Assembly: GCA_964527955.1 (NCBI GenBank)
Contig: CAZGOX010000002.1
Coordinates: 1-39,272, forward strand
DNA from: an uncultured Opitutaceae bacterium
GTDB taxonomy: Bacteria; Verrucomicrobiota; Verrucomicrobiia; Opitutales; Opitutaceae
DNA: 39,272 bases
Direction of reading: 5' to 3'
The number at the start of each line of letters is the position of its first letter. Position 1 is the first letter of the stretch. Below the pieces are notes generated by a model. It did no database searches and had not been told where the DNA came from. It worked only from the letters and a program-made list of their open reading frames with translations. The position numbers were made by a program, and so were the translations under genes. Shown one piece after another: positions 18,265-39,197 of the stretch.

Positions 18265-18984
18265 TCAGCCTCCGGTGGGAATCCGGACCCGGAAGCATGC
18301 GCCCGGCGCACCGGGCGGCGACACCAGGCTGATCGTCCCGCGCAGCTGCAAGAGCGCGTCGCGGCAGATGGATAGGCCGAAACCGGCGCCCGCTTGGCCT
18401 TCCTTGTCCAGCCGGAGAAAGAGGCTTGAGCGCTTCCCCGGGGGCACGCCCGGGCCGTTGTCGGCAATTTCCACCTGCAGCCAGCCGGCCTCGCCCGCGA
18501 GGCGGACCTCGATCTGGGGATCGGTCACGCCCCGGAGGGCCTCGACGGCGTTCCGCAGCAGGTTGAGAACCGTCACCCGCAGCAGTCGCCGGTCGGTCCG
18601 GATTGTATCGGTGGGGTGACGGAATGATGGCAGGAGGCGGATCCCGGACCGGGCAGCCAGGGGTTCGATCATCCCCACGGCCTCCTGCACCAGTTCCTGG
18701 ATGGAAACCGGTTCCAGCACGGTGCAATCGCACCGCAGCATGTCCAGGCCGATGTTGAAATCCCCGATGAACACGTCGAATTCGTGCAGGAGGCTGGCGC
18801 GATATTCGGCCGACAGGTTTGCCTCCATCCCCGCCTCGAGGAGCTCGAGCGCCGCGCGCAGCGTCGCCAGCCGGCCGCGCGCCTCGTGCCCGATCAGCGA
18901 GGCGACATAGGCGACCGCCGCCAGCCGTTCACGCGCCAGCGCGTCGCCACCTCCGGGCACTTCCAGGGAGGGGGAGCCGCTCAT
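18265..18984 (-). CDS. Small cytoplasmic histidine kinase (DHp + HATPase_c only, no sensor or TM region)
   Basis: H-box SLIGHEARGRLATL, N-box VLNLLRNAVEAL, G1 IADNGPGV and G2 GAGFGLSI. 239 aa. Start ATG overlaps the upstream stop (ATGA). Confidence 0.85.
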   Translation of the reverse strand: MSGSPSLEVPGGGDALARERLAAVAYVASLIGHEARGRLATLRAALELLEAGMEANLSAEYRASLLHEFDVFIGDFNIGLDMLRCDCTVLEPVSIQELVQEAVGMIEPLAARSGIRLLPSFRHPTDTIRTDRRLLRVTVLNLLRNAVEALRGVTDPQIEVRLAGEAGWLQVEIADNGPGVPPGKRSSLFLRLDKEGQAGAGFGLSICRDALLQLRGTISLVSPPGAPGACFRVRIPTGG

Positions 18985-20174
18985 AGTGCCACCGGAAATG
19001 CCGTCTCGACCGTGAACACACCGGCGACCGGCCGGGGCAGGAAGACGGCGCCGCGGGCGGCCGAAAGGACGCCGGCGAGGACATGCAGGTTGCCGGTCCG
19101 GCCCTCGTCCAGGCCGAAGGCGAAGGCATCGCGGATCTCGTCCACGGACGCCCCCGACAGGCTGCCGGAGATCCGGAATATCACGTAGGGCCGGTCGCGG
19201 CGGATCGTCTCGCGGTTCAGGACGCAGGCGGCCTGGCCGAGCCGTTCCGTCATCAGGCCGGCCGAATGCACGATAGAGGCGACAAGGGTCGTCTCCGCCC
19301 CGGGCGCTGCCCGCACGAAAAAGTACTCCACCAGGTGGCGCAGCCCGTTCAGGAGCTCAAGCGGGGCGCATTCCACCAGCGTGTCGCTGAGGAGGTCCCG
19401 CAACACCAGGCTCTTCCGGTCCGCAGTCCACCGATCCACGCCGACAAAGAATTGCCGCAGCGCCCCGAGGCACAGGTTGACGGGGGCCCGGGAGGCCGCG
19501 CTGCCGACCCCGAAGGGCCCGTCGAGGAACGCGTTGACCGAATCCACCATCTTGCCGACCAGGCTCGCCGACCGCCGCGCATGCTCCTCGAACTCCGCGT
19601 TGCCGCCGCGCCGGGCGTCCGTGCTGAGGAGCGAACCCAGCGCCGACAGCACGGTCAGCTGGTTGCGCAGCTGGTGGACCAGCCCGCGATGGAGGTCTGC
19701 CGCCGCCAGCCGCAAGTCGTAGCTCCCCAGCGCCTCGGCGAGCTTCTCCTTCGTGACGCCGGCTTCGCGGGCCGCCTGGGTCGTCTCGCGCCGTTCGCGG
19801 GTCTCGCGGATCGCCTGCTCGGTGCTGTGCCGCAGCTCCGCCAGAGTCGTCTTCGACTTAACCGCCCGCTTGATCGCGCGGAGCTCGATCGCCCGGTCCG
19901 CGATCTGGTCGGAGTCGTTCGCCGTGCGGATGATGATCGCGAGGTCCTTGTCAAACTCCCGCAGGGCGCGGAGGAAGGCGATCCCGTCCATCTCCGAGCG
20001 GGCGAGCCGCACGTCGACGATGGCCGCGTCGCACCGGTTCGCGCGCGCATATTTGAGCGCCGGCTCCGGCGTCATGAAATCGACCAGCTTCCCCAGCCCC
20101 GCGAGCTGCGCCTGCAGCGTCAGGATCTGCGAGCGCTCGTCCTCCAGGATCAGGATGATGGGGTCGGGCGTCAT
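18981..20174 (-). CDS. Receiver + DHp protein with degenerate catalytic (CA) domain (pseudo-kinase / phosphorelay-type)
   Basis: The internal ATG at 20174 gives MTPDPIILILEDE..., acceptor AAIVDVRL, IIIRTAN, and H-box LVHQLRNQLTVLSAL. C-terminal region: N-box Asn missing (LLNGLRHLVEYF); G1/G2 degenerate (ISGSLSG, RTGNLHVLAG). ATGA overlap with the upstream OmpR-type gene. The first 214 codons of track ORF 18981..20819 are rejected. Confidence 0.75.
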   Translation of the reverse strand: MTPDPIILILEDERSQILTLQAQLAGLGKLVDFMTPEPALKYARANRCDAAIVDVRLARSEMDGIAFLRALREFDKDLAIIIRTANDSDQIADRAIELRAIKRAVKSKTTLAELRHSTEQAIRETRERRETTQAAREAGVTKEKLAEALGSYDLRLAAADLHRGLVHQLRNQLTVLSALGSLLSTDARRGGNAEFEEHARRSASLVGKMVDSVNAFLDGPFGVGSAASRAPVNLCLGALRQFFVGVDRWTADRKSLVLRDLLSDTLVECAPLELLNGLRHLVEYFFVRAAPGAETTLVASIVHSAGLMTERLGQAACVLNRETIRRDRPYVIFRISGSLSGASVDEIRDAFAFGLDEGRTGNLHVLAGVLSAARGAVFLPRPVAGVFTVETAFPVAL

Positions 20175-20911
20175 GGGCTTCGCCGGGCGGCCCGGGAGTC
20201 GATCCGCCACCCGGCCTTCGGCTCGCTCACGACCCAGCGGTTCAGGTCGAGTCCGTGGCGGGAATACAGGCCGCGCAGTTTTGAGACGTATTCGTTCACC
20301 GAATGTCCGGCATCGTTGGCGTCCGAGCCCCAGACGGCCTTGACCAGCTCGTCCTTGAGCACCAGGCCGCCGGCCTTTTCCGCGAAGACCCGCAGGATCC
20401 CGAGGTGCTTCGGGCCGATCCGCTCCTCCGTGCCGTCGGGAAACCGGAGCATCAGGTCGGGCGTGACGGTGGCCTCGCCAAAGTTGAATTCCTTCTGGCC
20501 CAGGATCACCCCGCCGGCCCGGCGCATCGTCGTCTTTACGTCGCCCCGCGCCAGCAGCTTGCGGATGCGCACCAGCAATTCCTCGTAGTGAAAGGGCTTC
20601 CGCAGAAAATCGTCGGCCCCGGCATCCAGCGCCTCCACCGCGAGCGACGGCTGGGGGAGGTCCGACAGGGCGATGATCGGAAAACCGGCTCCGGCCTCCC
20701 GCCAATCCCGGATGGCATCCAGGCCGGCGGGCCGGCCGCCCAGGGCAAGGTCGACGAGGGCCAGGTCGAAGGAACGGCGGAGGACGGCATCCCGCGCCGG
20801 GCCGGCCTTGGTATGCCACTCCAGCTCGTGGGGCTGGAGCGCCAGCTGGAGAATGCCGCCAAGTTCTGGACTTTCGATGAGGAGCAGCAGGCAGCTCCGG
20901 CGGGGCACCAT
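20171..20911 (-). CDS. OmpR/PhoB-type response regulator (receiver + winged-helix)
   Basis: Receiver LLLLIESPE..., FDLALVDLAL, IIALSD and GADDFLRKPF. Winged helix FNFGEATV...IGPKHLGILRVFAEKAGGLVLKDELVKAVWG...SVNEYVSKLRGL...GWRI. Start set at M43 (20911); ATG 21037 is the alternative. Confidence 0.85.
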   Translation of the reverse strand: MVPRRSCLLLLIESPELGGILQLALQPHELEWHTKAGPARDAVLRRSFDLALVDLALGGRPAGLDAIRDWREAGAGFPIIALSDLPQPSLAVEALDAGADDFLRKPFHYEELLVRIRKLLARGDVKTTMRRAGGVILGQKEFNFGEATVTPDLMLRFPDGTEERIGPKHLGILRVFAEKAGGLVLKDELVKAVWGSDANDAGHSVNEYVSKLRGLYSRHGLDLNRWVVSEPKAGWRIDSRAARRSP

Positions 20912-21051: not shown

Positions 21052-23013
21052 TCAGGACTCGACCTTGTCGGCGATCGGGAGGCGCTCGACACCCTCCCGG
21101 GCCGCATCGAGCTGCCGGCGCACCCGCTCGGCGCGGAGGGAGGTGGGCGCGGTCAGCTCGTCCTTGGCCATTCTCAGTTCACCCAGCCGCACGTCGATCA
21201 GGGAGAGCTCTATGGCCATTTGCCCGAAGCGATTGAGCACCGAATCCTTGTTCAGGCGGTTGGCGCTGGCCTGCAGGGCGGTGATGTCGGCGGGCATGCC
21301 CTCCAGGCTTTGCACGACCTGGGAGAGCGATTCGTCTTTCGCCCCCTGGAACAGCCGATGCCGGAAGGGCGGGACAACCGCCGCCTCGCCGGGCGGGGCC
21401 GTCGACTCGGTCTGGATGAGCTCCGGGGTGATGAAGGCGAGCAGGGTCGTGTGAATGACGCTGTCGCTCTTGTTCTTGAAGGCGTAGCCGATCAACGGGA
21501 GGTCCCCGAAGATAGGAATCTTGTTGTCGGTGGTCTGCCGGCTGCGCTCCTCCAGGCCGGCGATCGCGAGGGTCTCTCCATTGGGAATCGCCACCGAATA
21601 GGCATACGTCCGTGAACTCGTTATGGGGTATTGATTGCCGTTGATCGTCTGCTGCCCGATGATCGAGGATACGTTGATCGACAGGTTAAGCTGGACCAAC
21701 TCCTTGGCTGGGCCTGATCCGGGCAAAATGCAGGGCAGGATGGTCACTTCGGTGCCGACGTCGATGTAGGCGATCTGCGAAGTGGTTGCCGCTGTCGCCG
21801 AGCCGATCGTCGTCGTCCCCTCCTGGATCGGCTGCTGGCTCGTGGCCTTGAAGGATACCTCCCGGTTGTTCGAGGTATAGATTACCGGATCCTGCACGAT
21901 GGAGCTCATGTGATCCGAGGCGATGGCTTGGACGGTCCATTGGAAGGCGGGGGCCGACAGCAGCGCGATCGGGGGGAGCTTGGTGTTGCCCGGATGGTTT
22001 AGATCGACTCCCGTGACCAGGCGCGCGTCAGGAGGACCTTGGAAGATAGCGCCGCCGGTGATGGGATCCTTGGTCTCCGTCGCCCAGCCGCCTAAACTGA
22101 TCGGTCCCCCGGAGCCCAGCGGAGTGTTGGACCAATCCACGCCGAGCGCCTGCGTCGGATTGCGCGCCGTTTCGATGAACTTGACCGAAATGCGGATGAG
22201 TTTCTGCGGCCGGTCCACGGTCTTGAGATAGGACGCGATCAGGGAGTGCTGCTGGCGGGTGGCCACGACGAACAGCTGGCTCGTGTCGGGATTCCAGATC
22301 GGCTCGATCTTGGGCGAATCGACCGACTTGCGCGCAGCCCCGATCCCGGGAACTGCGCTGCTGCCTTCCAGCGACAGCGTCTCCAGGCCGGCGGTGGGAA
22401 CCCCGAGGATTTTCTTGATGTCATCGATGATCTTGTCGGTCTTCACCGTGAAGGCCGACGACTTTCCCGACCCGGCCGACGAGGCGTAGGACGAACCGGA
22501 ACCGCCGGCGCCGGCGCCGCCACCGTTCGTCATGCTGCCCATGGCCGCGAGCTGGCTGTTGATGCCCGAGGAAGTGATGGAGACCTGCTGCATATTGTTG
22601 AAACGCAGGGTGTAGGACTTGCTGACTAGCTCGTTTAAATTGATGCGGTAGAACTGCCAGACGCCGCCGCGGTAGTCGGCTGCGAAGTTGTAGTTCTCGG
22701 CCAGGATCTGGATGAGGGCGTAGGGATTCATCCGCACGTCGCTCGTCACCCGCTCGCTGAAATCGGCCTCCGCCGGAGAAAGATAGGACATGTGGGCGGC
22801 CTGGGCCAGGAGACGGATGGCGCTGGCCAGCGTCGCCCCCTTGAGCGGGATGTGGCTGGGCGGCAGCGCTTCAAGGCGGGCCATTTCCGCCTCTTGGGCG
22901 AGCGGCGCGGCCACGACCTCCGCAGGCGCGGCCGGCGCGGGCGCGTCGGCAGCATGGAGCCGGGAAATCGAGAGCAACAGCACGGCGGCAGCGGAGAGCC
23001 TCAGCTTGGGCAT
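21052..23013 (-). CDS. Secretin (GspD/PilQ family) with signal peptide and ~119-aa helical C-terminal extension
   Basis: The internal ATG at 23013 gives MPKLRLSAAAVLLLSISRLHA|AD. N0-like IPLKGATLASAIRLLAQAAHMSYL, N-domain KLIRISVKFIETARN, and secretin core ...GETLAIAGLEERSRQTTDNKIPIFGDLPLIGYAFKNKSDSVIHTTLLAFITPELI. The 5' 423 codons of track ORF 21052..24282 are antisense to the peptidase gene. Confidence 0.9.
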   Translation of the reverse strand: MPKLRLSAAAVLLLSISRLHAADAPAPAAPAEVVAAPLAQEAEMARLEALPPSHIPLKGATLASAIRLLAQAAHMSYLSPAEADFSERVTSDVRMNPYALIQILAENYNFAADYRGGVWQFYRINLNELVSKSYTLRFNNMQQVSITSSGINSQLAAMGSMTNGGGAGAGGSGSSYASSAGSGKSSAFTVKTDKIIDDIKKILGVPTAGLETLSLEGSSAVPGIGAARKSVDSPKIEPIWNPDTSQLFVVATRQQHSLIASYLKTVDRPQKLIRISVKFIETARNPTQALGVDWSNTPLGSGGPISLGGWATETKDPITGGAIFQGPPDARLVTGVDLNHPGNTKLPPIALLSAPAFQWTVQAIASDHMSSIVQDPVIYTSNNREVSFKATSQQPIQEGTTTIGSATAATTSQIAYIDVGTEVTILPCILPGSGPAKELVQLNLSINVSSIIGQQTINGNQYPITSSRTYAYSVAIPNGETLAIAGLEERSRQTTDNKIPIFGDLPLIGYAFKNKSDSVIHTTLLAFITPELIQTESTAPPGEAAVVPPFRHRLFQGAKDESLSQVVQSLEGMPADITALQASANRLNKDSVLNRFGQMAIELSLIDVRLGELRMAKDELTAPTSLRAERVRRQLDAAREGVERLPIADKVES

Positions 23014-23019
23014 GGTGGC

Positions 23020-23028
23020 AGTATAACA
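23020..23028 (-). promoter_or_regulatory. Candidate extended -10 (TGTTATACT on minus strand) only 6 nt upstream of the secretin ATG
   Basis: Plus strand AGTATAACA is TGT-TATACT on the minus strand. This spacing would imply a leaderless or near-leaderless secretin mRNA. No good -35. Confidence 0.25.
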
Positions 23029-23029
23029 G

Positions 23030-23096: not shown

Positions 23097-23109
23097 CCCT
23101 CCTTCGGCC

Positions 23110-23307: not shown

Positions 23308-23340
23308 CCCGCATTTCCCTGCTAGACTAGGCGGAGACCC

Positions 23341-24216
23341 ATGAGCGGTTCCGCCCTCCTTTCCGCCTTCCCGTCCCACTGGCTCTGGGGCGCGCTGATC
23401 TTCCTGCTCGGCACGCTCGCCGGCCGGGGACTGGGCATGGTGGTCCAGGCGTTTGCGGAAGCGGAGTGCCCCCCGGGGGCGGCGCCCCCCGCCCGGGGAC
23501 GCCGGGAGCTCATCCCCGTCCTCGGCCCGATGCTGGCGCCGCGCCGGCCCGGCTTCCGGCGGGCGGCGTTGCTCGAACTGCTCGGCGGGGGCGTGGTCCT
23601 CGCCTGCTGGCTGCTCTTCCCGCCGGCCAAGGCGGCCTGCGGCTGCATCTTCGTCCTCGGGCTGATTGGAGCGTCGGTCATCGACCTCGACCACATGATC
23701 ATTCCCGACTTCTTTACCATGGGCCTCGCCCTCGCGGGTGTGCTGCTGTCGATCGCCGTCCCCGCGCTCCACCGGATGGGCCCCTTCGGCCCGGAGGCCT
23801 GCGTCCGCTCGGGCGCCGCCGCCCTGCTGGGGATCGGGCTCGGTTCCGCGCTTCCCCTTTGGTTCGGGCTCGTCGGCGAGCGCGTCCTGCAGAAGGAGGT
23901 CCTCGGTTTCGGCGACGTGAAATTCCTGGGTGCGATCGGCGCTTTCTGCGGCTGGCAAGGCGCCGTCTTCTCTCTCTTCGGCGGGGCGGTCGTCGGCGCC
24001 GTCGCGCTCGTCCTGGCCGCCCTCCACGAACGGCTCGCGCCCGGCCGCCCAGCCCGCCTGCTCCACCTGGAGTCCGCCGACGGCCAGTCGGCCCGGCTCG
24101 GCTGGGGCGTGCATTTCCCCTTCGGACCCATGCTGGCGATCGCCGCCGGCCTTTACTTCCTGGCGCTGCATCCCTGGGTCGATGGCTATCTTGCCCGCTA
24201 TCAGGCGCTTTTCTGA
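23341..24216 (+). CDS. Prepilin peptidase (A24 aspartic protease, PilD/GspO family)
   Basis: Catalytic Asp motifs IDLDHMIIPD and GFGDVKFLGAIGAF, polytopic hydrophobic profile, 291 aa. The N-terminal region lacks the paired CxxC motifs. Confidence 0.9.
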   Translation: MSGSALLSAFPSHWLWGALIFLLGTLAGRGLGMVVQAFAEAECPPGAAPPARGRRELIPVLGPMLAPRRPGFRRAALLELLGGGVVLACWLLFPPAKAACGCIFVLGLIGASVIDLDHMIIPDFFTMGLALAGVLLSIAVPALHRMGPFGPEACVRSGAAALLGIGLGSALPLWFGLVGERVLQKEVLGFGDVKFLGAIGAFCGWQGAVFSLFGGAVVGAVALVLAALHERLAPGRPARLLHLESADGQSARLGWGVHFPFGPMLAIAAGLYFLALHPWVDGYLARYQALF

Positions 24217-24313
24217 GCCACCGCCAAAAAACGCTCCCCGGGGGCCGGTTCGGCCCAACCGCGTGCTACACTTGGATCGCACTCAAGTACCAAACCAAAA
24301 CAAAAAAGGTCAT

Positions 24314-24745
24314 ATGCAACTCATCCAGAAGCTTCTGAAGCGGACCCGTCCGCACTCCGCCCGGAATCGTCTTTTGCGCGGGCTCAGCACGGCGGAACTC
24401 GTCGGCATCATCGTCATCGTCGGCATCCTGGGCGCCCTCGGCGGCACCTACGTCAACGGTCTGGTCAACCAGGCCAACACCAACGGCGGTAACCAGAACG
24501 CCAACACGCTCAACACGGTCGCCGCCTCCATCTTCGCGGCCGGCGCCACGGTCGGCTCGGGCGCGGGCCAGCTGGACACGACCTCTGCGGCGACGGCCAT
24601 CGCCGCGGTCAACACCGGGGTCACGGTCGGCGGCGTCCTCTACAAGATGACCCCGCAGATCGCCGCCGGCAGCATCGCGTCCTACACCATGACCGGGGCC
24701 GGCACGACCAACGTGGTCTTCAGCTACGCCGGGCCGACGCCGTAA
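24314..24745 (+). CDS. Prepilin-like protein A (major-pilin candidate), 23-aa basic leader, cleavage G|LSTAE
   Basis: The internal ATG at 24314 gives MQLIQKLLKRTRPHSARNRLLRG|LSTAELVGIIVIVGILGALGG, with Gly-1, Glu+5 and a hydrophobic helix. Mature ~120 aa, Thr/Ala/Gly-rich, no Cys. First pilin gene, preceded by an A-rich leader. Confidence 0.8.
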   Translation: MQLIQKLLKRTRPHSARNRLLRGLSTAELVGIIVIVGILGALGGTYVNGLVNQANTNGGNQNANTLNTVAASIFAAGATVGSGAGQLDTTSAATAIAAVNTGVTVGGVLYKMTPQIAAGSIASYTMTGAGTTNVVFSYAGPTP

Positions 24746-24805
24746 CGGCGGCCCTTGCCGCCCTCCCCGGGGCAGCTCCCCGGCGGACGGCGACCCTTTG
24801 GACCT

Positions 24806-25228
24806 ATGTTTGGTAACGTCCGAGCACTTCTCCGATCCCGCCGCAACCGGGCCCTACCCAGGGCCCGGTTGTCCGGCATGACGCTGGTCGAGGGGATCGG
24901 GATGGTCGTGCTGGTCGGCTTGATGGCGAGCCTGGCCTTTCCCGCGATCACCGGATTGCGGCAGGCCGGGCTGGACCAGCAGGCGATCAGCGTGGCCCAG
25001 GCCTTGAACCAGGCGCAGCAGACCTACCAGCTGCGGGTGGCCAACGCCGCCACCAATTGGAGCGGCGCCACCGATTCGGCCTCGAAGTACCTGCTGATTT
25101 CGGGGTACGTGCCGTATGCGACCGCCACAATCACCGATTACACGCCGTCCGGCTACACGCTGACGCTGGGGTCGACGCTCAACACCAAGGTCGTCATCGC
25201 GGGACCCAGCGGCACGGTGTCATATTGA
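24806..25228 (+). CDS. Prepilin-like protein B, 24-aa basic leader, cleavage G|MTLVE
   Basis: MFGNVRALLRSRRNRALPRARLSG|MTLVEGIGMVVLVGLMASLAFP. The alternative upstream ATG at 24755 would lengthen the leader further. Confidence 0.75.
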   Translation: MFGNVRALLRSRRNRALPRARLSGMTLVEGIGMVVLVGLMASLAFPAITGLRQAGLDQQAISVAQALNQAQQTYQLRVANAATNWSGATDSASKYLLISGYVPYATATITDYTPSGYTLTLGSTLNTKVVIAGPSGTVSY

Positions 25229-25246: not shown

Positions 25247-26095
25247 ATGAAACCGGTTTCGTCATCCGGGCGCGGGGGGTTCTCGATCGTCGAGGCCATC
25301 GGCTACCTGATCATCTTCGCGATCATGATGGCCGCCCTGACCTTCGGCATGAGCAGCCTGTTCACGCAGCAGGCCCGCGGCCAGGTCACCTACAACCAGG
25401 AGCCATACTCCCAGGCTCCCAGCTTCGACGACTTCCGGCAGGCCATCGACCTGCATGCAGCCTTCTCGACCGCGACGGACCAGGCCGACTCGATCGTCGT
25501 CCTCGGCGGCACACGCAGCCACCCGGCCTTCGATCCGACCGGCCCCTCCAGCGCCCTGAAGGCGACCTTTGCCGATTCCACCCTCGCTGCCGCGGCCAAT
25601 GGCGACGGCTCCAAGGCCTTTTCCTCCTGGGACCAGCGGCAGGTCAATTCGAGCCAGTTCAGCATCTACCTGACGTCGAATCCGGACCCCGCGGACTTCA
25701 CCGTCCTCACCGTCCAGGGCCTTTCGCGGATCACCTCGGTCACCCAGCAGCGGCGCTACCAGGCCACGATCAACGGGCAGGCTCTTTCGCTTTACGAGGT
25801 CACGCACCAGTCGATCGACTGGTCCTCGGGCTCCCCGGTCCCGATCCCGAACGCGGCGACCGGCACCGGCCCGACCTACGCCTACCGCTTTTTCTACGCC
25901 GCGGGCGAGGACGTCTGGTCGATGGCCCCGGGGGCCACGCACTACTGGTACCGGACCGATGCCACCTGGAACCGCGACCAGGAGGGACCCGCGCGGGTCA
26001 TCTTCGCCGACCCGTACGCCATGGCGGGCCAGGATCCGAACTCCCAGCTGAGCCCGGTCTCGCGCTTCATCTATTTCCTCCCCCAGCTCCGATGA
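25247..26095 (+). CDS. Minor pilin / pseudopilin-like protein (282 aa), cleavage G|FSIVE
   Basis: MKPVSSSGRGG|FSIVEAIGYLIIFAIMMAAL. Short leader, Phe+1, Glu+5. The globular part has no recognisable family. Confidence 0.7.
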   Translation: MKPVSSSGRGGFSIVEAIGYLIIFAIMMAALTFGMSSLFTQQARGQVTYNQEPYSQAPSFDDFRQAIDLHAAFSTATDQADSIVVLGGTRSHPAFDPTGPSSALKATFADSTLAAAANGDGSKAFSSWDQRQVNSSQFSIYLTSNPDPADFTVLTVQGLSRITSVTQQRRYQATINGQALSLYEVTHQSIDWSSGSPVPIPNAATGTGPTYAYRFFYAAGEDVWSMAPGATHYWYRTDATWNRDQEGPARVIFADPYAMAGQDPNSQLSPVSRFIYFLPQLR

Positions 26096-27450
26096 AACGG
26101 CCCCCTTCACCCTGGCAAAACGAGCGCGGGATGGCGAGCGTCGCCGTCTTCGTCTTCGCCGTCGTCTCGGTGCTTATCCTCGTCGCCAATTTCAAGCTCA
26201 ACTATGCGGTGAACGCCACGAGCGACGGCTACGACACCTTCGCATCGCAGCTGGTCGAGAAGAACGGGATCGCGCAGATCGTGAAGGAAAGCATCCTCGC
26301 CGTCGGCGAGACCGCGAACACCACCAGCGCGAATTCCCTGCAGACCGAGATCCAGAACCGGCTCTCGAGCATGTCGTTTCCGACGGGGATCGCAGTCGCG
26401 CTGGATCCCTCCACCCCGGTGCCCGGCGTGCCGGCCAACTCCTTTTTTCCCCTGGGCGCGCCGGCCAGCGGCTCCTGGCCCGCCTATTTCACGCCTTCCG
26501 GGACCACGCGTCCGCTGGCGGGAATGGGAAACCTCCTTTCGTCCTTTTGCATGCTCGGGCCGGCCGCCGACCTGGGCCGGCTGACGCTCGCCTTCAATCG
26601 CACGAGCACCGCCTCCGCGGATGACAACCGGAAGTACACGGTGAACGCCGACCTGTTTTCCGTGCCGCTCACGAACGTCGATGTGGTCGCCTACGGGCTG
26701 CCCGCGAGCGGCATCATCCCGCAGTCCGCCCCGGCGGTGCCGGCGGGCTTTTTCGGGTCCGGCGTCTCCTCGCTCGTCGTCACCTCCAACAATCCCGCCA
26801 ACGATGCCACGGCCTACCCCGATCTCTTCGCCTCCTCCGGCACCGAGCACCTCCCCTACCAGTACCGCAACGCCGTCAGCTTCGCCTGGAACGCGTACGA
26901 ATACCTCTGGTCCGCGACCTACCAGAGCGCCCTGCTCGCCACCGCCTCGGCCAACAGCGCCATCTACAATTTCCAGTTTCCCCCCAGCCAGTCAATCCCC
27001 GGGGTGACCGCCGCCGGCAGCGCGGTGACGATAGACTGCAGTGCCGTCGTAGGCCCGATTCTCGCCATCGTGGATCCCGATGGCAGCGGCACCGTCACCG
27101 TGACCGGCAGCCCGGCCAACGGCGCCCCGTTCATCCTGTTGGTGCGCAATACCGCCGGCCCGGCGACCCCGGTGACCTTCTCCGGGGACAACCACCGCCC
27201 GGCCATCTACTATCTCGAGAACGCCAACGCCGGCTTCTCCGGCAGCCCGCAGATCCAGGGTGCCCTTTTTCTCGATCCGCGCGCGGTGGCCCATGGCAGC
27301 GTGACCTGGTTCGGCCATTTTTCGTTCTATGGCCCCGCGAGCCCCCTCGGCGCGCTCAACCTCACGATGGCCGACAGTCCCCCGGTCAAGGACGCCCTCG
27401 CGGCGCTCGCCCCGCGGGTTCTGCTCGTGTCGACCAGCTCCACCCGCTAG
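26092..27450 (+). CDS. Large minor-pilin-like protein lacking Glu+5 (GspK/PilX-like position), 452 aa
   Basis: The internal ATG at 26092 (ATGA overlap with the previous stop) gives MKRPPSPWQNERG|MASVAVFVFAVVSVLILV. Hydrophobic helix present, but residue +5 is Ala. The first 345 codons of track ORF 25057..27450 overlap the two upstream pilin genes (24806..25228, 25247..26095) on the same strand in other frames and are rejected. Confidence 0.55.
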   Translation: MKRPPSPWQNERGMASVAVFVFAVVSVLILVANFKLNYAVNATSDGYDTFASQLVEKNGIAQIVKESILAVGETANTTSANSLQTEIQNRLSSMSFPTGIAVALDPSTPVPGVPANSFFPLGAPASGSWPAYFTPSGTTRPLAGMGNLLSSFCMLGPAADLGRLTLAFNRTSTASADDNRKYTVNADLFSVPLTNVDVVAYGLPASGIIPQSAPAVPAGFFGSGVSSLVVTSNNPANDATAYPDLFASSGTEHLPYQYRNAVSFAWNAYEYLWSATYQSALLATASANSAIYNFQFPPSQSIPGVTAAGSAVTIDCSAVVGPILAIVDPDGSGTVTVTGSPANGAPFILLVRNTAGPATPVTFSGDNHRPAIYYLENANAGFSGSPQIQGALFLDPRAVAHGSVTWFGHFSFYGPASPLGALNLTMADSPPVKDALAALAPRVLLVSTSSTR

Positions 27451-28677: not shown

Positions 28678-28725
28678 TTGCCCGGCGGCGCATAATCGCG
28701 CATTTTAGCGTGTTATACTCGACGG

Positions 28726-29769: not shown

Positions 29770-31226
29770 TCCAGCAGTGCCTCGACCTCGCCCTGGGCCG
29801 TGCTTTCAAGCCCGATCCCCTCGACACCGCCGTGCCGCTGGCCCGCCGGTTTGCGAAGCGTCCCCTGATTGCGATCACCGTCTACAAGGACGGGCTCGAG
29901 GTGGCCCTGGTCACCTTCGCCGGGGAGGTGCCCACGATCGGCCGGCCGGAATTCGGCCCGACGGGCGGCGAGGAGGTCGACGCCGCCTTCGTGCGCTCCT
30001 TTGCCGAGCGCCACAAGGCCCGCGAGTGCCTGGTCAACCTGACCACCGGCTACACCGCCGTCCTTTCGTCCCGCGCCCGCCGCCCGGACAATGACGAGGA
30101 GGCTCTCGTCCTGATGCGGGACAACCCCGAGCGGCTCCTCGGCGAGCCGCCCGCGCAGGGCTGCCGGCACTCGCTCGCCTTCCACCCCACGCACAATTTC
30201 GCGGTCGCCTTCGCCCACAAGGAGCACGACATCACCTCTGTCGTCTCCCTGGTCGCGAAGGCGGACCTCTCGATCGCGCGGCTGCAGTGCGGGATGACCA
30301 GCCTGCTCATCCACGTCCTCGGGCATTCCTGGGCCGAGGTCGGCCGGGAGGCCGAGCTCCTCTTCGTGGACCGGGCTTCCCTCTTCTACATGACCGTCTC
30401 CGAGGGTTCCTTCGGCCGGCCGCTGTTCGACATCGGCCTGAAGGAAGCCGCGCTCCGGCAGGCCGTCTCCGAGCGCATCGAGCGGCTCAAGCCGGAGGGC
30501 CGCGTGATCCTGATCAACAGCTCGGGCCTCGACATTGAGGCCATGCTCCTCGAGCGGCGCCAGACCCTCGACATTGTCCAGCCGATGAAGGGCCAGCCCT
30601 CCCCGGCGCTCGTCGCCTGCTGCAGCGACCGGCCGCGGCTGGGCTACGACCTTTTTCCCAGCGAGCGCCTGGTGCGGCCGTTCGCCCCGGGGCGCCTGTG
30701 GGTCGTGCCGGCCCTCCTCTGGACCACGGTCGCGGCGGCGGTGCTGATCGTCGGGACCAACACCTTCCGCTCCACCCAGGCCGACCGGCTGGCCGCGAGC
30801 TTCAAGACCCAGGCCCAGATGCTCGGCGACTCGGAAAAGCGGACCGAGGGCGTGATCCACGACGTCGAGTCCCGCGCCCAGGCCGCCGACGCCATGTGCA
30901 GCTGGCTGCTTATCAGCCCGCCGACGGAGGCCCTGCTGATCGACCTGTCGAAGGAGATCGAGGCCGCGACCAACCAGGGGTTGCAGGAGAGCAAGTCGGT
31001 GGCGCAGGTCGACAGCCTGTCGCTGACCCGCCAGGAGGGGCAGCCGCAGATGCGGCTGGTCATCGTCGTCCTCGGGGACGCCGCGTCCGCGAACCGCGTG
31101 TTCCAGCGCATTTCCGCGCTCTTCGGGCGGATGGGCTACAGCACCGTGGACCTGAAGGAGACGCTCGTGCCGCAGGGCTTCCGCTACGAGCACCTGCTCA
31201 ACATCCCCCGGCCCCTGGGAACATGA
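29766..31226 (+). CDS. PilM-PilN fusion-like (GspL-like) bitopic assembly protein
   Basis: Internal ATG at 29766 (ATGA overlap). ~310-aa cytoplasmic domain, PilN-like N-terminal peptide GYDLFPSER, one TM LWVVPALLWTTVAAAVLIVG, then ~155 periplasmic aa beginning with a coiled-coil-like stretch. Assignment rests on topology and position, not strong motifs. Confidence 0.55.
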   Translation: MIQQCLDLALGRAFKPDPLDTAVPLARRFAKRPLIAITVYKDGLEVALVTFAGEVPTIGRPEFGPTGGEEVDAAFVRSFAERHKARECLVNLTTGYTAVLSSRARRPDNDEEALVLMRDNPERLLGEPPAQGCRHSLAFHPTHNFAVAFAHKEHDITSVVSLVAKADLSIARLQCGMTSLLIHVLGHSWAEVGREAELLFVDRASLFYMTVSEGSFGRPLFDIGLKEAALRQAVSERIERLKPEGRVILINSSGLDIEAMLLERRQTLDIVQPMKGQPSPALVACCSDRPRLGYDLFPSERLVRPFAPGRLWVVPALLWTTVAAAVLIVGTNTFRSTQADRLAASFKTQAQMLGDSEKRTEGVIHDVESRAQAADAMCSWLLISPPTEALLIDLSKEIEAATNQGLQESKSVAQVDSLSLTRQEGQPQMRLVIVVLGDAASANRVFQRISALFGRMGYSTVDLKETLVPQGFRYEHLLNIPRPLGT

Positions 31227-31762
31227 AGCGCTTCACCCTCCCCGCCCTCGTCCTCCTCGCCGTCAGCGCGCTCCTGCTGCTGGCGATCCTCCGGAGTTTC
31301 GGGCGGGCCAGCCAGGCCGCGGGCAAGCTCGCCGCCGAGCAGCAGACGGTGGAGCTTTCCCGGCTCCGGCTGACCTCGGTCCTGCGGGCCGCGGCCACCG
31401 CGAAGAGCAAGAGCGCGGCGGCCGACAAGTTCCTGGAAACCTGGACCCAAGAGCTGGACGCCGAGTCCAACATCGAGCACGTCTTCGGCCGGCTCGACAC
31501 CCTCGCGGTGAACAACCTGCTGTCCCCTTCCGGCAAGAATTTCACGCTGAACAAGAACTACTTCTTCAACGGCCGCCACCTGCCCGTGCAGAACGTGAAC
31601 ATCACCGTGGCCGGCGACTACGCCCGCACGCTCAATTGGCTCGGCGCGGTGGAGTTCGCCTTCCCGCTGGCGCGGGTCGAGCAGATCTCCTACACGACCA
31701 ACGGGAACTCGCTCTCGCTCTCGGTCCAGTTCGTCTTTCCCCTCAAGTTCGAAGTGGAATGA
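31223..31762 (+). CDS. PilO/GspM-like bitopic protein
   Basis: Internal ATG at 31223 (ATGA overlap). MKRFTLPALVLLAVSALLLLAIL TM, a coiled-coil stretch, and a ~100-aa C-terminal domain. Called by topology and gene order only. Confidence 0.45.
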   Translation: MKRFTLPALVLLAVSALLLLAILRSFGRASQAAGKLAAEQQTVELSRLRLTSVLRAAATAKSKSAAADKFLETWTQELDAESNIEHVFGRLDTLAVNNLLSPSGKNFTLNKNYFFNGRHLPVQNVNITVAGDYARTLNWLGAVEFAFPLARVEQISYTTNGNSLSLSVQFVFPLKFEVE

Positions 31763-32256
31763 AAGCCGCCCCGCTCCTGCTCCTCGCCGTCCTGGCAGCG
31801 CCGCCCCCGGGCGCCGCCGCGCCCGCCCCGGCCAGCCCGGCCGCCCCCTCCCTCTTTGAGCGCGTCGGCAGCGACTACAAGAAGCCCCAGGAGGTGCCGG
31901 ACAGCTTTTTCAACCCGTTCAAGATCCAGGCGACGGGGGTGTCCGCCCCCAAGAAAGGGAGCGCTGCGATCACCAACGAATTGGTCAGCGACGCGGTGGG
32001 ACGCCGGGGCGTCTCGGGCGTCGTCTATGCGGCGCCGGCGGAGACGAGCCACGTCATCATCGGCGACCAGGTGTTCGGCATCGGCGACGAGCTCGTCTTC
32101 CCGGAGGCGGACGGCGCCGGCTCGGCCCCGCTCGTGCCCGGGGCCGCGGTGGTGCTGCGCGAAATCGGCGCCCACGACCTTGCCCTGGACCTCACGCCGG
32201 AGGGCGAGGCGACCCGCCGGGTCAATTTTCCGCTGCACGCCTTCTGGCGGCCCTAG
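31759..32256 (+). CDS. Secreted PilP/GspC-HR-like small protein
   Basis: Internal ATG at 31759 (ATGA overlap). Signal peptide MKAAPLLLLAVLAAPPPGAAA, no lipobox Cys. C-terminal VIIGDQVFGIGDELVFPE...AVVLREIGAHDLALDL resembles the PilP/GspC beta-domain pattern. Weak. Confidence 0.4.
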   Translation: MKAAPLLLLAVLAAPPPGAAAPAPASPAAPSLFERVGSDYKKPQEVPDSFFNPFKIQATGVSAPKKGSAAITNELVSDAVGRRGVSGVVYAAPAETSHVIIGDQVFGIGDELVFPEADGAGSAPLVPGAAVVLREIGAHDLALDLTPEGEATRRVNFPLHAFWRP

Positions 32257-32269
32257 CCCCATCCGGACC

Positions 32270-34426: not shown

Positions 34427-34435
34427 GACGCCCCC

Positions 34436-35719
34436 ATGGCCGCCGTCGCCCAACCCTGGATCTTCCGGGTCTTCACGATCCGCTACCGCGGGCGCAAGCG
34501 CGAGGTGGACGTCTACTCGCCCGCCTCGGCGTCCGCCGCCCGCTTCGCCGCGGGCAAGGCCGACGACGAGGAGCTGTCCGAGAAGCGCCTCGAGGCCTTC
34601 GACCGGAGCTTCCGGACCTTCTGGACCAGGAAGACGGCCAAGGTCAGCGAGCTGGAGAAATTCTACAGCGGCATGGCCGAAGCCCTGCACATGGGGGCGG
34701 ACTTCCGCTCCGCCCTCGATCTCGTGGCCCCGAGCGCGGAAACCGCCTATTTCCGGGGGGTGATCGCGGCCGTCTACGAGCGCAAGGCCTCCTCGGCCAG
34801 CATCGCGGCGCTGATGCGGGATTTTCCCGGGGCCTTCAGCAACGTCGCCGTGGCGATGGTCGCCCAGGGCGAGACCTCCGGCAAGCTCGAGGTGGTCTTC
34901 GACAAGCTGGCGACGATGACGAAGAACCGGATGATGATCATGGGGGAGATCAAGTCCGGCCTGTATTATCCCGGTTTCATCGGCTGCATGCTCCTGGTTG
35001 CGATCATCGTCGTGAATTTCATCGTCCTGCCGATGATCACGGCGAACTTTAAGCTTTTTCACACCGAGCTGCCGCCCGTGACCCAGATGCTGTTCGACGG
35101 GCTGGGCTTCATGTCCGCGCATCCGCAGGTGGCCTTCATGCCGCCCATCATCGTGTTCGTGGCGGTGCTGCGCTGGCGGTGGATCTGCCGGCAGCCGTTC
35201 ACGCAGAAGGTGATGGTGCGGCTGCCCACGATCGGCGTGCTCTTCCAGAAGGAGATCCTCTCGCGCAGCCTGCGGACGCTGGCCATGCTCTACCAGACCG
35301 GGGTCTACCAGCGCGACGCCTTCGCGATCACGGCCAGCGTGGCCGACCACGTCGAGTATTCCGCCTACTTCCGGTCGATCAGCGAGCACCTCTCGAAATC
35401 GGCCAGCCTGTACCAGGCGTTCCTGCGGGAACGCCACCGCATCGGCAGGATCGGGAAGGCCGTGGCCGACCAGATGAAAGTCGCCTCGTCGTCGGCCGAT
35501 CCGTCGCTCATCCTGAGCCGCATCGCCTCCCTGTTCGAGGAGCAGGCCATGCGGGATGCCCGAAACCTGCCCAAGCTCATCGAGCCCATCCTCATCTTGA
35601 TTATTCTCGTTTTTGTGGGTTTCCTCGCCGCCGCCATCTATCTGCCCAACCTCTATCTGATGTCCCATGTCGTCCAGCATCCCAGCTTGATGAATACCAA
35701 TCAGATACCGCCCCATTAA
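34436..35719 (+). CDS. GspF/PilC-family inner-membrane platform protein
   Basis: N-terminal F.IRYRGRKREVDVYSPASASAARFAAGK pattern, two T2SSF-like halves (MVAQGETSGKLEVVFDKLA... and ...ADQMKVASSSADPSLILSRIASLFEEQ), three hydrophobic blocks, 427 aa. Confidence 0.85.
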   Translation: MAAVAQPWIFRVFTIRYRGRKREVDVYSPASASAARFAAGKADDEELSEKRLEAFDRSFRTFWTRKTAKVSELEKFYSGMAEALHMGADFRSALDLVAPSAETAYFRGVIAAVYERKASSASIAALMRDFPGAFSNVAVAMVAQGETSGKLEVVFDKLATMTKNRMMIMGEIKSGLYYPGFIGCMLLVAIIVVNFIVLPMITANFKLFHTELPPVTQMLFDGLGFMSAHPQVAFMPPIIVFVAVLRWRWICRQPFTQKVMVRLPTIGVLFQKEILSRSLRTLAMLYQTGVYQRDAFAITASVADHVEYSAYFRSISEHLSKSASLYQAFLRERHRIGRIGKAVADQMKVASSSADPSLILSRIASLFEEQAMRDARNLPKLIEPILILIILVFVGFLAAAIYLPNLYLMSHVVQHPSLMNTNQIPPH

Positions 35720-35762
35720 TCGGTGCCGGGAAAGTCCCCCGGCGTGCTACACTAGGGGTGGC

Positions 35763-38700: not shown

Positions 38701-39197
38701 GCGGGGCGGCGGATCCCTCCCTGGCGTCCTCCACGGTCACGATCACCGGGAACCTGGCGCTCGTCGCGAACTTCACCCATGTGCCCCAGCCCCCGACGGC
38801 GACCCTCGATGCGGCCGCGTCGGCCTACACCGGATCGCCGTTCACGGTCACCAGCCTCGCGGGCGCCCCCGACGACAATCTCACGCTCCATAGCATCGAA
38901 TGGCTCTCGCCGGCCGGAGCCTGGACCGTCGACAGCGCCGCCGCCTCCGGCTCTTCGGACAATCGCTCGCTCGGGATCAATTTCGACACCGCCGGCGTCT
39001 GGACCCTGCGGGCCGGAGCCAGCGTCGACAACGGCGTCACCTGGGTCTACAGCCCGAGTGTCCAGGTCACGGTCGCGAACGGCATCAGCTCGTATACCCT
39101 TCAGTCCATGGCGGTGCCGAGCGGCAATTCCCTGGCCTGGTACGCGAGCTCGCCCGTTGTCCAGCGGACCTACCAGGTCAAGCATCTCAACCCGTAG
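35763..39197 (+). CDS. Secreted 1144-aa multidomain protein: Gly/Cys-rich domain + Ig-like + He_PIG ('putative Ig') domains + six InlB-B-repeat-like domains + unique C-terminal domain
   Basis: Signal peptide MKSAVFLRWCRWALLLGAGLPALAVVSRA|D. Glycine-rich domain YTVPAGADYIIVKAWGGGGACG...GGDGSFSQ...IKVGSGG...GCGGGGGATEV...ACGGGGGGS with 15 Cys in aa 30-250. He_PIG signature GATGLPQGLSVSPGTGLISGTPAVTGTFPVTISASN (three copies). B-repeat signature Y.L.I...GG.F.G.GTY..GTVV.I.E.A..GYR..GWGG......M..N.SL.ANF (six copies). Confidence 0.85.
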   Translation: MKSAVFLRWCRWALLLGAGLPALAVVSRADTTLSSTVFSCRNQNQSYTVPAGADYIIVKAWGGGGACGTNTSGGDGSFSQATCDVSPGQSCTIKVGSGGTRQSSGGWPNGSSSRGNGCGGGGGATEVDTPNCTLTACGGGGGGSSRAGYPGNSDGNNHNQCGGSDHNWDGGNGGGDGAPTFSGSCRSTRTQCGGNGTPPCTNDSDYPGNNVGCAGTASRHNDGCPGAVVVIACKRVSAQTITFPNPGTQCTNTSVVLNATASSALPVSYVVTSGPATLTGSSARLTATGSVTVTASQAGSSAYTAATPVSVTFPVYAKPVITSPLTSGGKLNESVTYAITATNSPTSYGATGLPQGLSVSPGTGLISGTPAVTGTFPVTISASNVVGTGSATLTLTVSQTYSLAITGSPAVGGTFAGGGTYDPGTVVSISETANSGYRAGGWGGTDGSRTAAPSHASTTIVMSGNRSLVANFVPQATLTVTAGTGGVTTGGGTYDVGATVPITATATGNYVFMGWSGSGVASTHAASTTVVLPGNEIVTASFMQPPTFTGGISNQILVVGRHCSLPVNATGATSFSGASLPPGISINPTTGLISGSPTTPGPWSATITASNAGGSASEPVVFTVYATPVITSPTPVNGKLNEPFSTTITASGNPTSFGATGLPPGLSIDPSSGVISGTPTSAGSFPATVTATNPGTSGSATVTVVVGQTYTLTIAASPAAGGSYSGAGTFDPGTVVTVSETANAGYRASGWGGANGSQTAAPSSATTTIVMNGNRSLSANFVAQATLTVTALAGGSAIGGGVYDIGATVPIAATPASGYSFTTWTGTGVGVPGSAATSVTVAGNEVVVANFTPLPPPPVIPNYNLTIIGSTGSGGTFTGAGTYPAGTVVTITEAPAAGYRTNGWGGPDAGNTAAPSNASTTIVMNADASLVANFVQQGTLTVSAGTGGAVTAANGTYDVGTVVPISAAPNATYVFGSWSGGAADPSLASSTVTITGNLALVANFTHVPQPPTATLDAAASAYTGSPFTVTSLAGAPDDNLTLHSIEWLSPAGAWTVDSAAASGSSDNRSLGINFDTAGVWTLRAGASVDNGVTWVYSPSVQVTVANGISSYTLQSMAVPSGNSLAWYASSPVVQRTYQVKHLNP
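36714..37394 (+). repeat. Intragenic module copy A (He_PIG + two B-repeats, aa 318-544)
   Basis: KPVITSPLTSGGKLNESVTYAITATNSPTSYGATGLP...SQTYSLAITGSPAVGGTF...ANFVPQATLTVTAGTGG... aligns residue-for-residue by eye with copy B, 309 aa downstream. Confidence 0.8.
37641..38321 (+). repeat. Intragenic module copy B (He_PIG + two B-repeats, aa 627-853); a third B-repeat pair follows at 38346-38777
   Basis: TPVITSPTPVNGKLNEPFSTTITASGNPTSFGATGLP...GQTYTLTIAASPAAGGSY...ANFVAQATLTVTALAGG.... Same order and spacing as copy A. Confidence 0.8.

Follow-up and report, generated by a model that had tools for sequence, protein, structure and literature searches.

Gene content and extent of the locus

The stretch of DNA analysed here, called the window below, is 39,272 nucleotides long, represents one entire NCBI contig (CAZGOX010000002.1, assembly GCA_964527955.1) of an uncultured Opitutaceae bacterium, and carries at positions 21052-35719 a self-contained, complete type IV filament (T4F) locus, which is a lineage-specific variant of the known T4F superfamily and not a new kind of machine. 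Raw open reading frames (ORFs) are noisy at 62-70 % G+C, and a clean gene set was obtained by filtering on third-position G+C and N-terminal motifs. Using ORF filtering together with Pfam, NCBIfam and PDB searches, all core T4F parts were found with intact motifs, namely a secretin, an A24 peptidase, five prepilins, a PilT-like ATPase, a fused PilM-PilN protein, two small bitopic or periplasmic proteins, a PilB/GspE-like ATPase and a PilC/GspF platform (Table 1). Gene calls and Pfam thus agree with an earlier note, made from the letters and their ORFs, which had placed every core machine part at these positions. At the superfamily level the locus matches PF00437, PF00482, PF01478 and PF00263 and contributes five prepilin N-termini; the generic definition of Denise et al. 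(2019) asks for a PilB/GspE-family ATPase, a T2SSF platform and at least one type IV prepilin per cluster, with peptidase and secretin optional.

The conserved block spans ~15299-39197 and is wider than first noted, because the sigma-70-like and ParB-like genes on its left are syntenic in two orthologous loci (L023 and L024) and a homologue of the receiver gene is found in L024. The proposed association of the machine with a signalling module and a giant secreted protein is borne out by synteny in other genomes. All six ATGA stop/start overlaps that had been reported are present, four on the plus strand and two amongst the regulators, at the histidine kinase/REC-HisKA and REC-HisKA/OmpR-type junctions (REC, receiver domain). 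The single-operon layout, however, is doubtful because five conserved promoter-like motifs split the locus, and the plus-strand genes probably form four transcription units rather than one operon.

Table 1. Genes and promoter-like motifs of the conserved block, in order of position. A slash marks the prepilin cleavage site; E, E-value; aa, amino acids; TM, transmembrane
Feature	Coordinates	Strand	Evidence or remarks
Stand-alone receiver response regulator, REC + C-terminal coiled coil	15299..15820	+	PF00072, E 2e-17
ParB-HTH-like protein, 308 aa	15845..16771	-	PF17762, E 3e-6; syntenic in L023, L024
Sigma-70-family protein, regions 2-3, possibly part of region 4	16801..18108	-	Sigma70_r2, E 9e-5
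Soluble histidine kinase, H-box + HATPase_c	18265..18984	-	PF02518, E 5e-19
Receiver fused to HisKA-like domain (REC-HisKA)	18981..20174	-	PF00072, E 2e-11; HisKA weak
OmpR-type response regulator	20171..20911	-	PF00072 + PF00486; syntenic
Secretin	21052..23013	-	PF00263, E 5e-33
Motif TGTTATACT	23020..23028	-	6 nt before secretin ATG; conserved in L001, L004, L005, L007, L009, L023
Motif TGCTAGACT	23320..23328	+	12 nt before A24 peptidase ATG; also in L024
A24 prepilin peptidase	23341..24216	+	PF01478, E 6e-15
Motif TGCTACACT	24264..24272	+	41 nt before pil1 ATG; conserved in 7 orthologous loci
Prepilin 1, candidate major pilin	24314..24745	+	23-aa basic leader, G/LSTAE; mature 120 aa, no Cys
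Prepilin 2, GspI/PilV position	24806..25228	+	24-aa leader, G/MTLVE
Prepilin 3, GspJ/PilW position	25247..26095	+	G/FSIVE; 282 aa
Prepilin 4, GspK/PilX-type	26092..27450	+	G/MASVA; Val at +5, no Glu5
Prepilin 5, modular pilin	27466..28677	+	G/FSTVE; CHB_HEX_C_1 PF13290, E 1e-8; Fn3_assoc PF13287, E 3e-8
Motif TGTTATACT	28711..28719	+	6 nt before PilT-like ATG; conserved in 8 orthologous loci
PilT-clade ATPase (coarse level)	28726..29769	+	pilT_fam (TIGR01420) 163 bits, cut-off 319; top PDB matches PilT/PilU
GspL-type PilM-PilN fusion (fold level), 486 aa	29766..31226	+	AlphaFold2 + Foldseek
Bitopic protein, 179 aa, putatively PilO/GspM-like	31223..31762	+	Position, size and topology only
165-aa protein, putatively PilP/GspC-HR-like	31759..32256	+	Position and motif only
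Assembly ATPase, PilB/GspE family, 718 aa	32270..34426	+	PF00437, E 1e-78
Inner-membrane platform, PilC/GspF family	34436..35719	+	Two T2SSF domains, three TM segments
Motif TGCTACACT	35745..35753	+	9 nt before giant-protein ATG; also in L001, L009, L010
Secreted repeat protein, 1144 aa	35763..39197	+	Pfam

Motors, platform, secretin and peptidase

The assembly ATPase, in which Walker A/B and the Asp and His boxes are all intact, has a tetracysteine motif (CxxC...CxxC) and a family-specific N-terminus of ~330 residues. Its NCBIfam scores fall far below the family cut-offs, with 279 bits for GspE (TIGR02533, cut-off 630), 267 bits for PilB (TIGR02538, cut-off 676) and 252 bits for TfpB, and the TadA-family (54 versus 373 bits) and ComGA (164 versus 300 bits) models likewise leave it outside the Tad and ComM systems. 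Amongst PDB entries, phmmer gave 222 bits for GspE (1p9r), 195 for PilF, 179-188 for PilB, 87 for BfpD and 25 for CpaF. When the family profile was compared by hhalign with reference proteins (E. coli Gsp, Hof and YggR, R64 Pil, and Lng), it scored 472 with E. coli GspE, 404 with HofB, 262 with R64 PilQ and 249 with LngH; the top matches of a plasmid tblastn search were to gspE, at 37 %. Identity is at least 52 % inside the ATPase's own clade and at most 36 % outside it. The platform reaches 135 bits against the GspF model (TIGR02120, cut-off 424), and by hhalign HofC is slightly nearer to it than GspF, with weak matches to PilR and LngI.

A bootstrapped neighbour-joining tree of 25 sequences over 367 columns unites the family ATPases in a clade at 99 %, and places them with GspE, HofB and their nearest database neighbours in a further 99 % group that leaves the ATPases of type IVb pili (T4bP) outside, while branching inside the non-T4bP group is weakly supported (28 %). 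The smaller ATPase, with intact Walker A/B and Asp boxes, groups at 100 % with PilT (YggR and a Termitidicoccus PilT); with the PilT/PilU matches of Table 1, this agrees with the proposal of a PilT-type ATPase inside the locus and suggests, at a coarse level only, a place in the PilT clade.

The secretin consists of a signal peptide, an N0-like region, a Gly/Ser linker, one weak N-domain and a core at residues 364-533, and neither an AMIN domain (Pfam/NCBIfam, E ≤ 0.1) nor a lipobox was found in it. Residues ~540-653 form a conserved helical C-terminal extension of ~115 residues, far longer than a pilotin-binding S-domain. The protein scores 117 bits against GspD (TIGR02517, cut-off 351), 93 against PilQ (284), 73 against MshL (TIGR02519, 250) and 81 against the Akkermansia Amuc_1098 family (NF042912, 750), which places it in none of these families; by hhalign GspD and HofQ are about equally near, R64 PilN is lower and LngD gives a weak match. 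The A24 peptidase carries both Asp motifs (DLDHMIIPD and GFGDVK), and a DiS_P_DiS/methyltransferase domain was not detected in it. Its BLASTP alignment with the T4bP peptidase LngP is longer than that with GspO, whereas hhalign slightly favours GspO; trees of prepilin peptidases are considered unreliable and the genes exchangeable (PMC6668835).

Judged from these comparisons, motor, platform and secretin belong to the supergroup of type IVa pili (T4aP), mannose-sensitive haemagglutinin (MSH) pili as well as type II secretion systems (T2SS), slightly nearer to GspE and as a lineage of their own, and none of the three shows an affinity to T4bP. In the framework of Denise et al., T4bP are basal and ComM then parts from the group of T4aP, MSH and T2SS, with T4aP polyphyletic. 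Denise et al. (2019) left 884 T4F systems as 'generic', so that systems fitting none of the textbook classes are common where phyla have been little studied. Searches of the literature on pili and T2SS of Opitutaceae or Verrucomicrobia turned up no account of the present system, and Opitutus, Opitutaceae and Akkermansia have no per-genome entry in the supplements of Denise et al. With scores below every family cut-off and no describing paper found, the suggestion that the locus is uncharacterised and fits no curated class is supported.

Prepilins and the giant secreted protein

All five prepilins show the cleavage motif with Gly at -1 and a hydrophobic alpha1 segment. The count of five, with one member lacking Glu+5, was part of the first description and agrees with the cleavage motifs, with the Val at +5 of prepilin 4, and with the orthologs, all of which lack Glu5 in this protein. 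Likeness of prepilin 1 to GspG/PpdD is confined to the N-terminal helix (hhalign), and prepilin 2 has weak N-terminal matches to the GspG and GspH NCBIfam models and reaches 96.5 % against GspG in hhalign across the alpha1 helix. The 23- and 24-residue basic leaders of pilins 1 and 2, followed by Leu and Met at +1, are as first reported; they are not an artefact of the chosen start codon, because orthologs conserve the leader from the ATG (MQLIxKLL...RG/LSTAE for pilin 1). In the pilins of a sister subfamily (subfamily B, see below), the +1 residue is Phe.

The AlphaFold2 model of prepilin 4 (26 sequences; predicted local distance difference test, pLDDT, of 72 overall and above 90 at residues 290-410) shows a long N-terminal helix, a small sheet, a beta-solenoid-like C-terminal domain and, at the very end, a strand (443-447) with the nearly invariant sequence APRVLLVSTS. 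A Foldseek search of the PDB with this model returned the Thermus ComZ pilin (6qvi) as top match, which is not significant (E 0.09, TM-score 0.23). In GspK and CpaL, a conserved C-terminal strand completes the tip complex in cis (PMC13533445). The large modular minor pilins (403 and 452 residues) are conserved, and no Pfam family was found in them beyond the CHB_HEX_C_1 and Fn3_assoc modules of prepilin 5, which is itself kept in subfamily A (see below) and in the distant locus L014.

The giant protein encoded at the right end consists of a Sec signal peptide, a Gly_rich_2 domain, three He_PIG domains, six Flg_new_2 (InlB-B-repeat-like) units and a unique C-terminal domain that ends in SPVVQRTYQVKHLNP; no recognisable cell-surface sorting signal was found. 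Seven other subfamily-A loci reach past pilC, and six of them (L004, L007, L009, L010, L023 and L024, but not L001) have its ortholog directly after that gene; the C-terminal domain is 53-68 % identical in orthologs with nearly invariant last residues (SPVxQRTYQVxHxNP). The giant protein is functionally linked to the machine and may be cargo, a pilus-associated adhesin or a tip partner of the PilY1/MshQ type. Donation of a beta-strand to the K-type pilin, as for PilY1 or MshQ, was considered in view of the conserved C-terminus and given less weight, since pilin 4 resembles GspK and CpaL in ending with a conserved strand of its own (PMC13533445).

Alignment-complex-like proteins

The AlphaFold2 model of the 486-residue protein (pLDDT 79) consists of a cytoplasmic actin-like (PilM-like) domain, a 75-residue helix including a TM and coiled-coil part, and a C-terminal, periplasmic alpha/beta domain that is ferredoxin-like (PilN-like). 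In Foldseek the model matched PilM (5eou, 2ych) and FtsA, as well as EpsL, PulL and GspL in their cytoplasmic domains (1w97, 5tkw, 4pht), at E 1e-10 to 1e-6, although no Pfam or NCBIfam family matches the sequence. The GspL-like PilM-PilN fusion proposed earlier is thereby confirmed at the level of the predicted fold. Run against 1.84 billion representative proteins, a profile of this L-like family retrieves no more than 133 at E ≤ 1e-3; no Pfam domain was found in ten sampled members, and the named relatives come from Opitutaceae and Puniceicoccales. The family includes fused proteins of ~470-530 residues as well as split pairs of an actin-like N-terminal protein (~295 residues) and a bitopic C-terminal protein (~195 residues). 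Since both forms coexist, fusion or fission of PilM and PilN has occurred within the lineage.

In the 179-residue protein a TM segment is combined with a coiled coil and an alpha/beta domain; the 165-residue protein carries a signal peptide, and its beta-rich C-terminus contains a GspC-HR/PilP-like motif. Neither relaxed scans of Pfam nor profile searches of the PDB gave a significant match for the two families, with T2SSM at E 0.14 in 1 of 11 members and GspC at E 0.57 for the 165-residue protein. Among the locus proteins, no Pfam or NCBIfam match at E ≤ 0.1 was found to GspC/L/M, PilM/N/O/P, AMIN, PilY1, FimU/PilVWX or a pilotin, in line with the reported absence of PilY1, FimU/PilVWX, pilotin and AMIN. 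Profile-versus-sequence hhalign of the accessory proteins against the E. coli Gsp/Hof, R64 Pil and Lng proteins gave nothing beyond the pilin N-termini, with at most 39 % probability outside alpha1 for E. coli GspC/H/I/J/K/L/M.

Distribution and synteny

Relatives of the locus were found only in Opitutaceae metagenome-assembled genomes (MAGs) and metagenomes, the carriers being uncultured soil and freshwater Opitutaceae. The gene order is shared by no fewer than 10 loci from Opitutaceae MAGs or metagenomes, and more distant variants exist elsewhere. In subfamily A (L001, L004-L007, L009, L010, L013, L023 and L024; L-like protein 55-92 % identical) the order is kept from the regulators to the giant protein, and in subfamily B (L002, L003, L011 and L012; ~36-45 % identity, ~36 % for the L-like protein) it runs from four pilins through PilT and the L-, O- and P-like proteins to PilB and PilC. 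A third group, at 52 % identity in PilB, carries the complete set, PilT among it, so that the PilT-like gene is retained in three subfamilies. The distant locus L014 (23-36 % identity per component) has, in this order, pilins, L, O, P, B, C and secretin. The components co-diverge across subfamilies, which points to one coherent, vertically evolving system rather than a mosaic.

In the subfamily-B locus L002, two proteins of ~650-675 residues are encoded after pilC (13297-17545); they carry CHB_HEX_C/Fn3_assoc modules as in pilin 5 of the window and end in a Pro/Thr-rich linker, a TM segment and a basic tail, resembling a PEP-CTERM-type anchor. Termitidicoccus mucosus, a cultured member of the Opitutaceae, has on a 102-kb plasmid (NZ_CP109797.1; L017/L018) a PilT gene followed by an overlapping gene for a 528-residue hypothetical protein, together with PilC-like and pilin-like genes; the record itself looks fragmented in parts. 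This pilus-like cluster was rejected as a relative, its PilT being 30 % identical and an L-like homologue missing.

Regulators and a promoter-like motif

The sigma-70-like protein has its best PDB matches to RpoS/RpoD at residues 199-371 and is syntenic in L023 and L024; its true start may lie downstream, because the orthologs have 409-412 residues. The histidine kinase is likewise syntenic in these two loci, orthologs of the REC-HisKA protein, in which Pfam detected no ATPase domain, flank the secretin in L001, L004-L007, L009, L023 and L024, and in L024 the homologous receiver gene adjoins the ParB-like gene in the orientation opposite to that of the window and is preceded by TGTTACACT.

In the window the 9-mer TGyTAnACT has exactly five copies where 0.36 would be expected, and none of 100 shuffles reached that number. 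Each copy lies 6-41 nt ahead of a start codon of the locus, none is found elsewhere in the window, and the motif recurs at orthologous positions in nine other loci while the flanking sequence diverges. It looks like an extended -10 element, and the spacing of 6-9 nt between motif and ATG implies that the secretin, PilT-like and giant-protein genes would have leaderless or near-leaderless mRNAs. We hypothesise that the element is recognised by the sigma factor of the locus. A near-match, TGCTACAAT, is located at 15268-15276, 22 nt upstream of the ATG of the receiver gene at 15299, and the 9-mer was not found before the regulator genes even when one mismatch was allowed. A scan of the window for canonical sigma-70 promoters found nothing, terminator counts are at chance level, and an Rfam scan returned no RNA family. 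In L007, a gene for a 128-residue secreted protein resembling a secretin N0/STN-type domain (20296-20733) lies just past the giant gene, with a sixth copy of the motif, TGTTATACT, 42 nt upstream; the window stops short of the equivalent position.

Neighbouring genes

Left of the conserved block, two Rho-like proteins (Rho_RNA_bind and ATP-synt_ab) of 407 residues and of 619 residues with a long N-terminal extension are encoded within 7 kb, at 1955-3178 (+) and 8054-9913 (-). A 328-residue ORF at 12390-13376 (-) matches only an N-terminal fragment of an IS200-like Y1 transposase, and at its 5' end it overlaps, on the other strand, the beginning of a ComM/YifB-type Mg-chelatase-like ATPase gene taken as the longest ORF (13323-15128, +); a dip of G+C to 62-64 % at 10-14 kb coincides with this region. 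Two large ORFs of high third-position G+C, at 3222-4985 (+; 587 residues) and 86-1825 (+; 579 residues), have no Pfam match.

Proposed function and alternative explanations

We lean towards the view that the locus encodes one complete, lineage-specific T4F machine which builds a retractile surface pilus with an adhesive tip. The A24 peptidase, with its intact catalytic motifs, would cleave the five prepilins at their recognisable sites; pilins 2, 3 and 4, in the I-J-K order and with a K-type member that lacks Glu5 and has its own C-terminal strand, would form a priming tip complex, near which pilin 5 with its carbohydrate-binding-type modules may join, and pilin 1 would polymerise into the shaft. 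A hexameric PilB/GspE-like ATPase and the PilC/GspF-like platform would power extension, with motor and platform presumably held by the PilM-PilN fusion with its GspL-type fold, and connected by the two small partners to the AMIN-less secretin. Homology points to retraction of the fibre by the PilT-clade ATPase, and the giant protein with its immunoglobulin (Ig)-like repeats would be exported to act with the pilus as an associated adhesin or as cargo. Expression is likely to be controlled by the local phosphorelay (histidine kinase, REC-HisKA, OmpR-type and single-domain regulators), the sigma-70-like factor and the ParB-like protein, which may act via TGyTAnACT.

Several points weigh against this reading. 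The first His-box histidine of the PilT-like ATPase is replaced by Leu in all family members (TGH to IGL/TGL), and L014 lacks PilT, so that retraction does not extend to the whole of the wider family. By its scores the assembly ATPase lies marginally closer to GspE than to PilB, and the tree was built by neighbour joining with few references. Pilin 1 stays a candidate for the major pilin, and the PilO/GspM-like and PilP/GspC-like identities of the 179- and 165-residue proteins are putative assignments by position and topology. The motif TGyTAnACT could be a promoter type in general use in this organism. The relatives are without exception uncultured MAGs or metagenome contigs, and the locus is known from sequence alone.

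A T2SS-like secretion machine, in which a short periplasmic endopilus on a GspE/GspL/GspM-type platform would drive folded proteins, the giant protein among them, out by way of the secretin, and the PilT-like ATPase would only aid disassembly, is the chief alternative and possible, if on the unlikely side. The nearness of the ATPase to GspE (222 bits for 1p9r versus ~180-195 for PilB; hhalign 472 versus 404; gspE as top tblastn match at 37 %), the architecture of the GspL-type fusion, the missing PilT of L014 and the failure to find either PilY1 or an AMIN domain would all fit. Many T2SS substrates are encoded beside their system, and a conserved secreted protein adjoins this one. The pilins-L-M gene order, moreover, resembles gspG-M and the T2SS-annotated cluster of Verruconatronum (PMC13274419). 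Nevertheless, all T2SS equivalog scores are far below cut-off, no profile of GspC/G/H/I/J/K/L/M matches, the pilin leaders are long, the modular minor pilins of 403 and 452 residues are far bulkier than T2SS pseudopilins, and three subfamilies keep PilT, a gene that T2SS reportedly lost (PMC6668835).

A further-reaching proposal, which we hold to be unlikely, is that the locus represents an unnamed T4F class limited to Opitutales-type Verrucomicrobiota. Such a class would unite a T2SS-type platform (GspE-like and GspL-type) with a PilT motor, large modular tip pilins and, under shared regulation, a giant Ig-repeat protein that acts as cargo or at the tip as a partner, would serve attachment to polysaccharides or particles, and would form a private regulon of the locus sigma factor via leaderless extended -10 TGyTAnACT promoters.

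The earlier note had seen in the locus a mixture of T2SS, T4aP and T4bP characters. An evolutionary mosaic recruiting parts from all three could account for the basic leaders of 23-24 residues with Leu/Met at +1 on two pilins, for the longer BLASTP alignment of the peptidase with LngP than with GspO, and for a PilT paired with a GspE-like ATPase. We consider it improbable, however: ATPase, platform and secretin agree in lying near the T2SS/T4aP references (T4aP/MSH/T2SS as a group), with T4bP much further away; hhalign slightly favours GspO for the peptidase, whose trees are in any case unreliable and its genes exchangeable (PMC6668835); and the components co-diverge. The supposed T4bP traits reduce to the leader length and the +1 residue of two pilins, which is Phe in subfamily B. 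Other supposed class markers are shared, as the I-J-K set with a K-type pilin lacking Glu5 is common to T2SS, T4aP and MSH (PMC13533445), and single-locus layouts are typical of MSH and Tad (PMC6668835). As for the placement of the ATPase, the few-reference neighbour-joining tree upholds a clade of its own (99 %) and puts it inside the non-T4bP supergroup, which speaks against the mixture.

A DNA-uptake pilus with the large K-type minor pilin as tip DNA receptor, like Thermus ComZ, appears highly improbable: the top PDB match of the pilin-4 model with its beta-solenoid domain (6qvi), the PilT-type motor and the ComM/YifB-like gene at 13323-15128 hint at it, but the ComZ match is not significant (E 0.09, TM-score 0.23), comM is a widespread gene without a syntenic counterpart in L023 or L024, the window contains neither a ComEA nor a ComEC gene, and the CHB_HEX_C modules and the giant Ig-repeat protein suggest adhesion over DNA binding.

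Verrucomicrobiota are major polysaccharide degraders of soil and water, and their surface machines are essentially unstudied. The locus defines a coherent family of ~20 genes, and current profile libraries miss its alignment proteins and minor pilins; with only 133 L-like proteins amongst 1.84 billion and no Pfam domain in the ten sampled, automated tools will therefore file it as 'generic' or misname it T2SS. It also offers a natural test of whether a GspE/GspL-type platform can be combined with retraction by PilT, and it brings modular tip pilins that are new, as well as a candidate regulon in compact form, made up of sigma factor, phosphorelay and promoter motif.

Comparison with known systems

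With the T2SS (Gsp/Pul/Eps), the locus shares an ATPase nearest to GspE, a GspL-like fusion of actin-like, TM and periplasmic domains, L- and M-like genes after the pilins, a K-type pilin without Glu5 and with its own C-terminal strand, a secreted protein encoded next door, and no PilY1 or AMIN match. It differs, however, in scoring two- to three-fold under the equivalog cut-offs, in matching no GspC/G-M profile, in having a PilT-clade ATPase, in placing E and F after the pilins and L/M and not before them, in very large, modular minor pilins with long leaders in the pilin set, and in the ~330-residue family-specific N-terminus of the ATPase. Neither GspE/F/D equivalogs, nor recognisable GspC/L/M/G-K, nor an absence of PilT was thus found. 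In Verruconatronum alginivorum, an Opitutales isolate, a T2SS-annotated cluster has the order J, FimT, K, a 449-residue protein, a 173-residue protein, secretin, a hypothetical protein, GspE and GspF, and follows the same logic of pilins, a ~450-residue and a ~170-residue protein with one TM segment each, then E and F (PMC13274419).

According to Denise et al., T2SS and MSH derived from a polyphyletic T4aP. The likeness to T4aP (Pil/Hof) lies in the PilB/PilT motor pair, the I-J-K-type minor pilins, the secretin and a platform slightly nearer to HofC. In contrast to T4aP, the genes form a single locus and are not scattered, PilM and PilN are fused, Leu or Met stands at +1 after a long leader, the peptidase has no detectable methyltransferase domain, and no PilM/N/O/P, FimU/PilVWX, PilY1 or AMIN profile matches. 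The minor pilins match no FimU/PilV/W/X profile, yet they keep an I-J-K-like order with a K-type pilin without Glu5. PilB and PilT/PilU at the family level, and separate PilM/N/O/P with a PilQ secretin, which often carries an AMIN domain, were not found.

Retraction of MSH pili depends on PilT. Like MSH (mshI-Q), the locus is single, proceeds from alignment proteins to ATPase and platform, and includes a very large protein, comparable to the ~1100-1200-residue MshQ that is tied to the minor pilins (PMC13533445). In contrast to MSH loci, which lack one, it has its own prepilin peptidase (PMC6668835), and the giant protein follows pilC and not the K-type pilin. The mandatory MSH set comprises mshA, E, G, L and M (PMC6668835); no MshM-like AAA or MshN TPR protein was found in the block, and the MshL score is 73 bits against 250.

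With T4bP (Bfp, Lng/Cof and the R64 thin pilus), the locus has in common a compact layout and two pilins in which a long basic leader precedes a +1 residue other than Phe. Some T4bP, for example Bfp, encode a retraction ATPase, and the mature major pilin of T4bP has ~180-200 residues. The 23-residue leader and Leu at +1 of pilin 1 fit this class, but its mature size of 120 residues, and not ~190, does not, and the +1 position is Phe in subfamily B. The ATPase, the platform and the secretin lie far closer to T2SS/T4aP references and do not fall in the T4bP clade, and no T4bP-specific accessory proteins were found in the locus. The locus leaves the general picture of type IV filaments unchanged.

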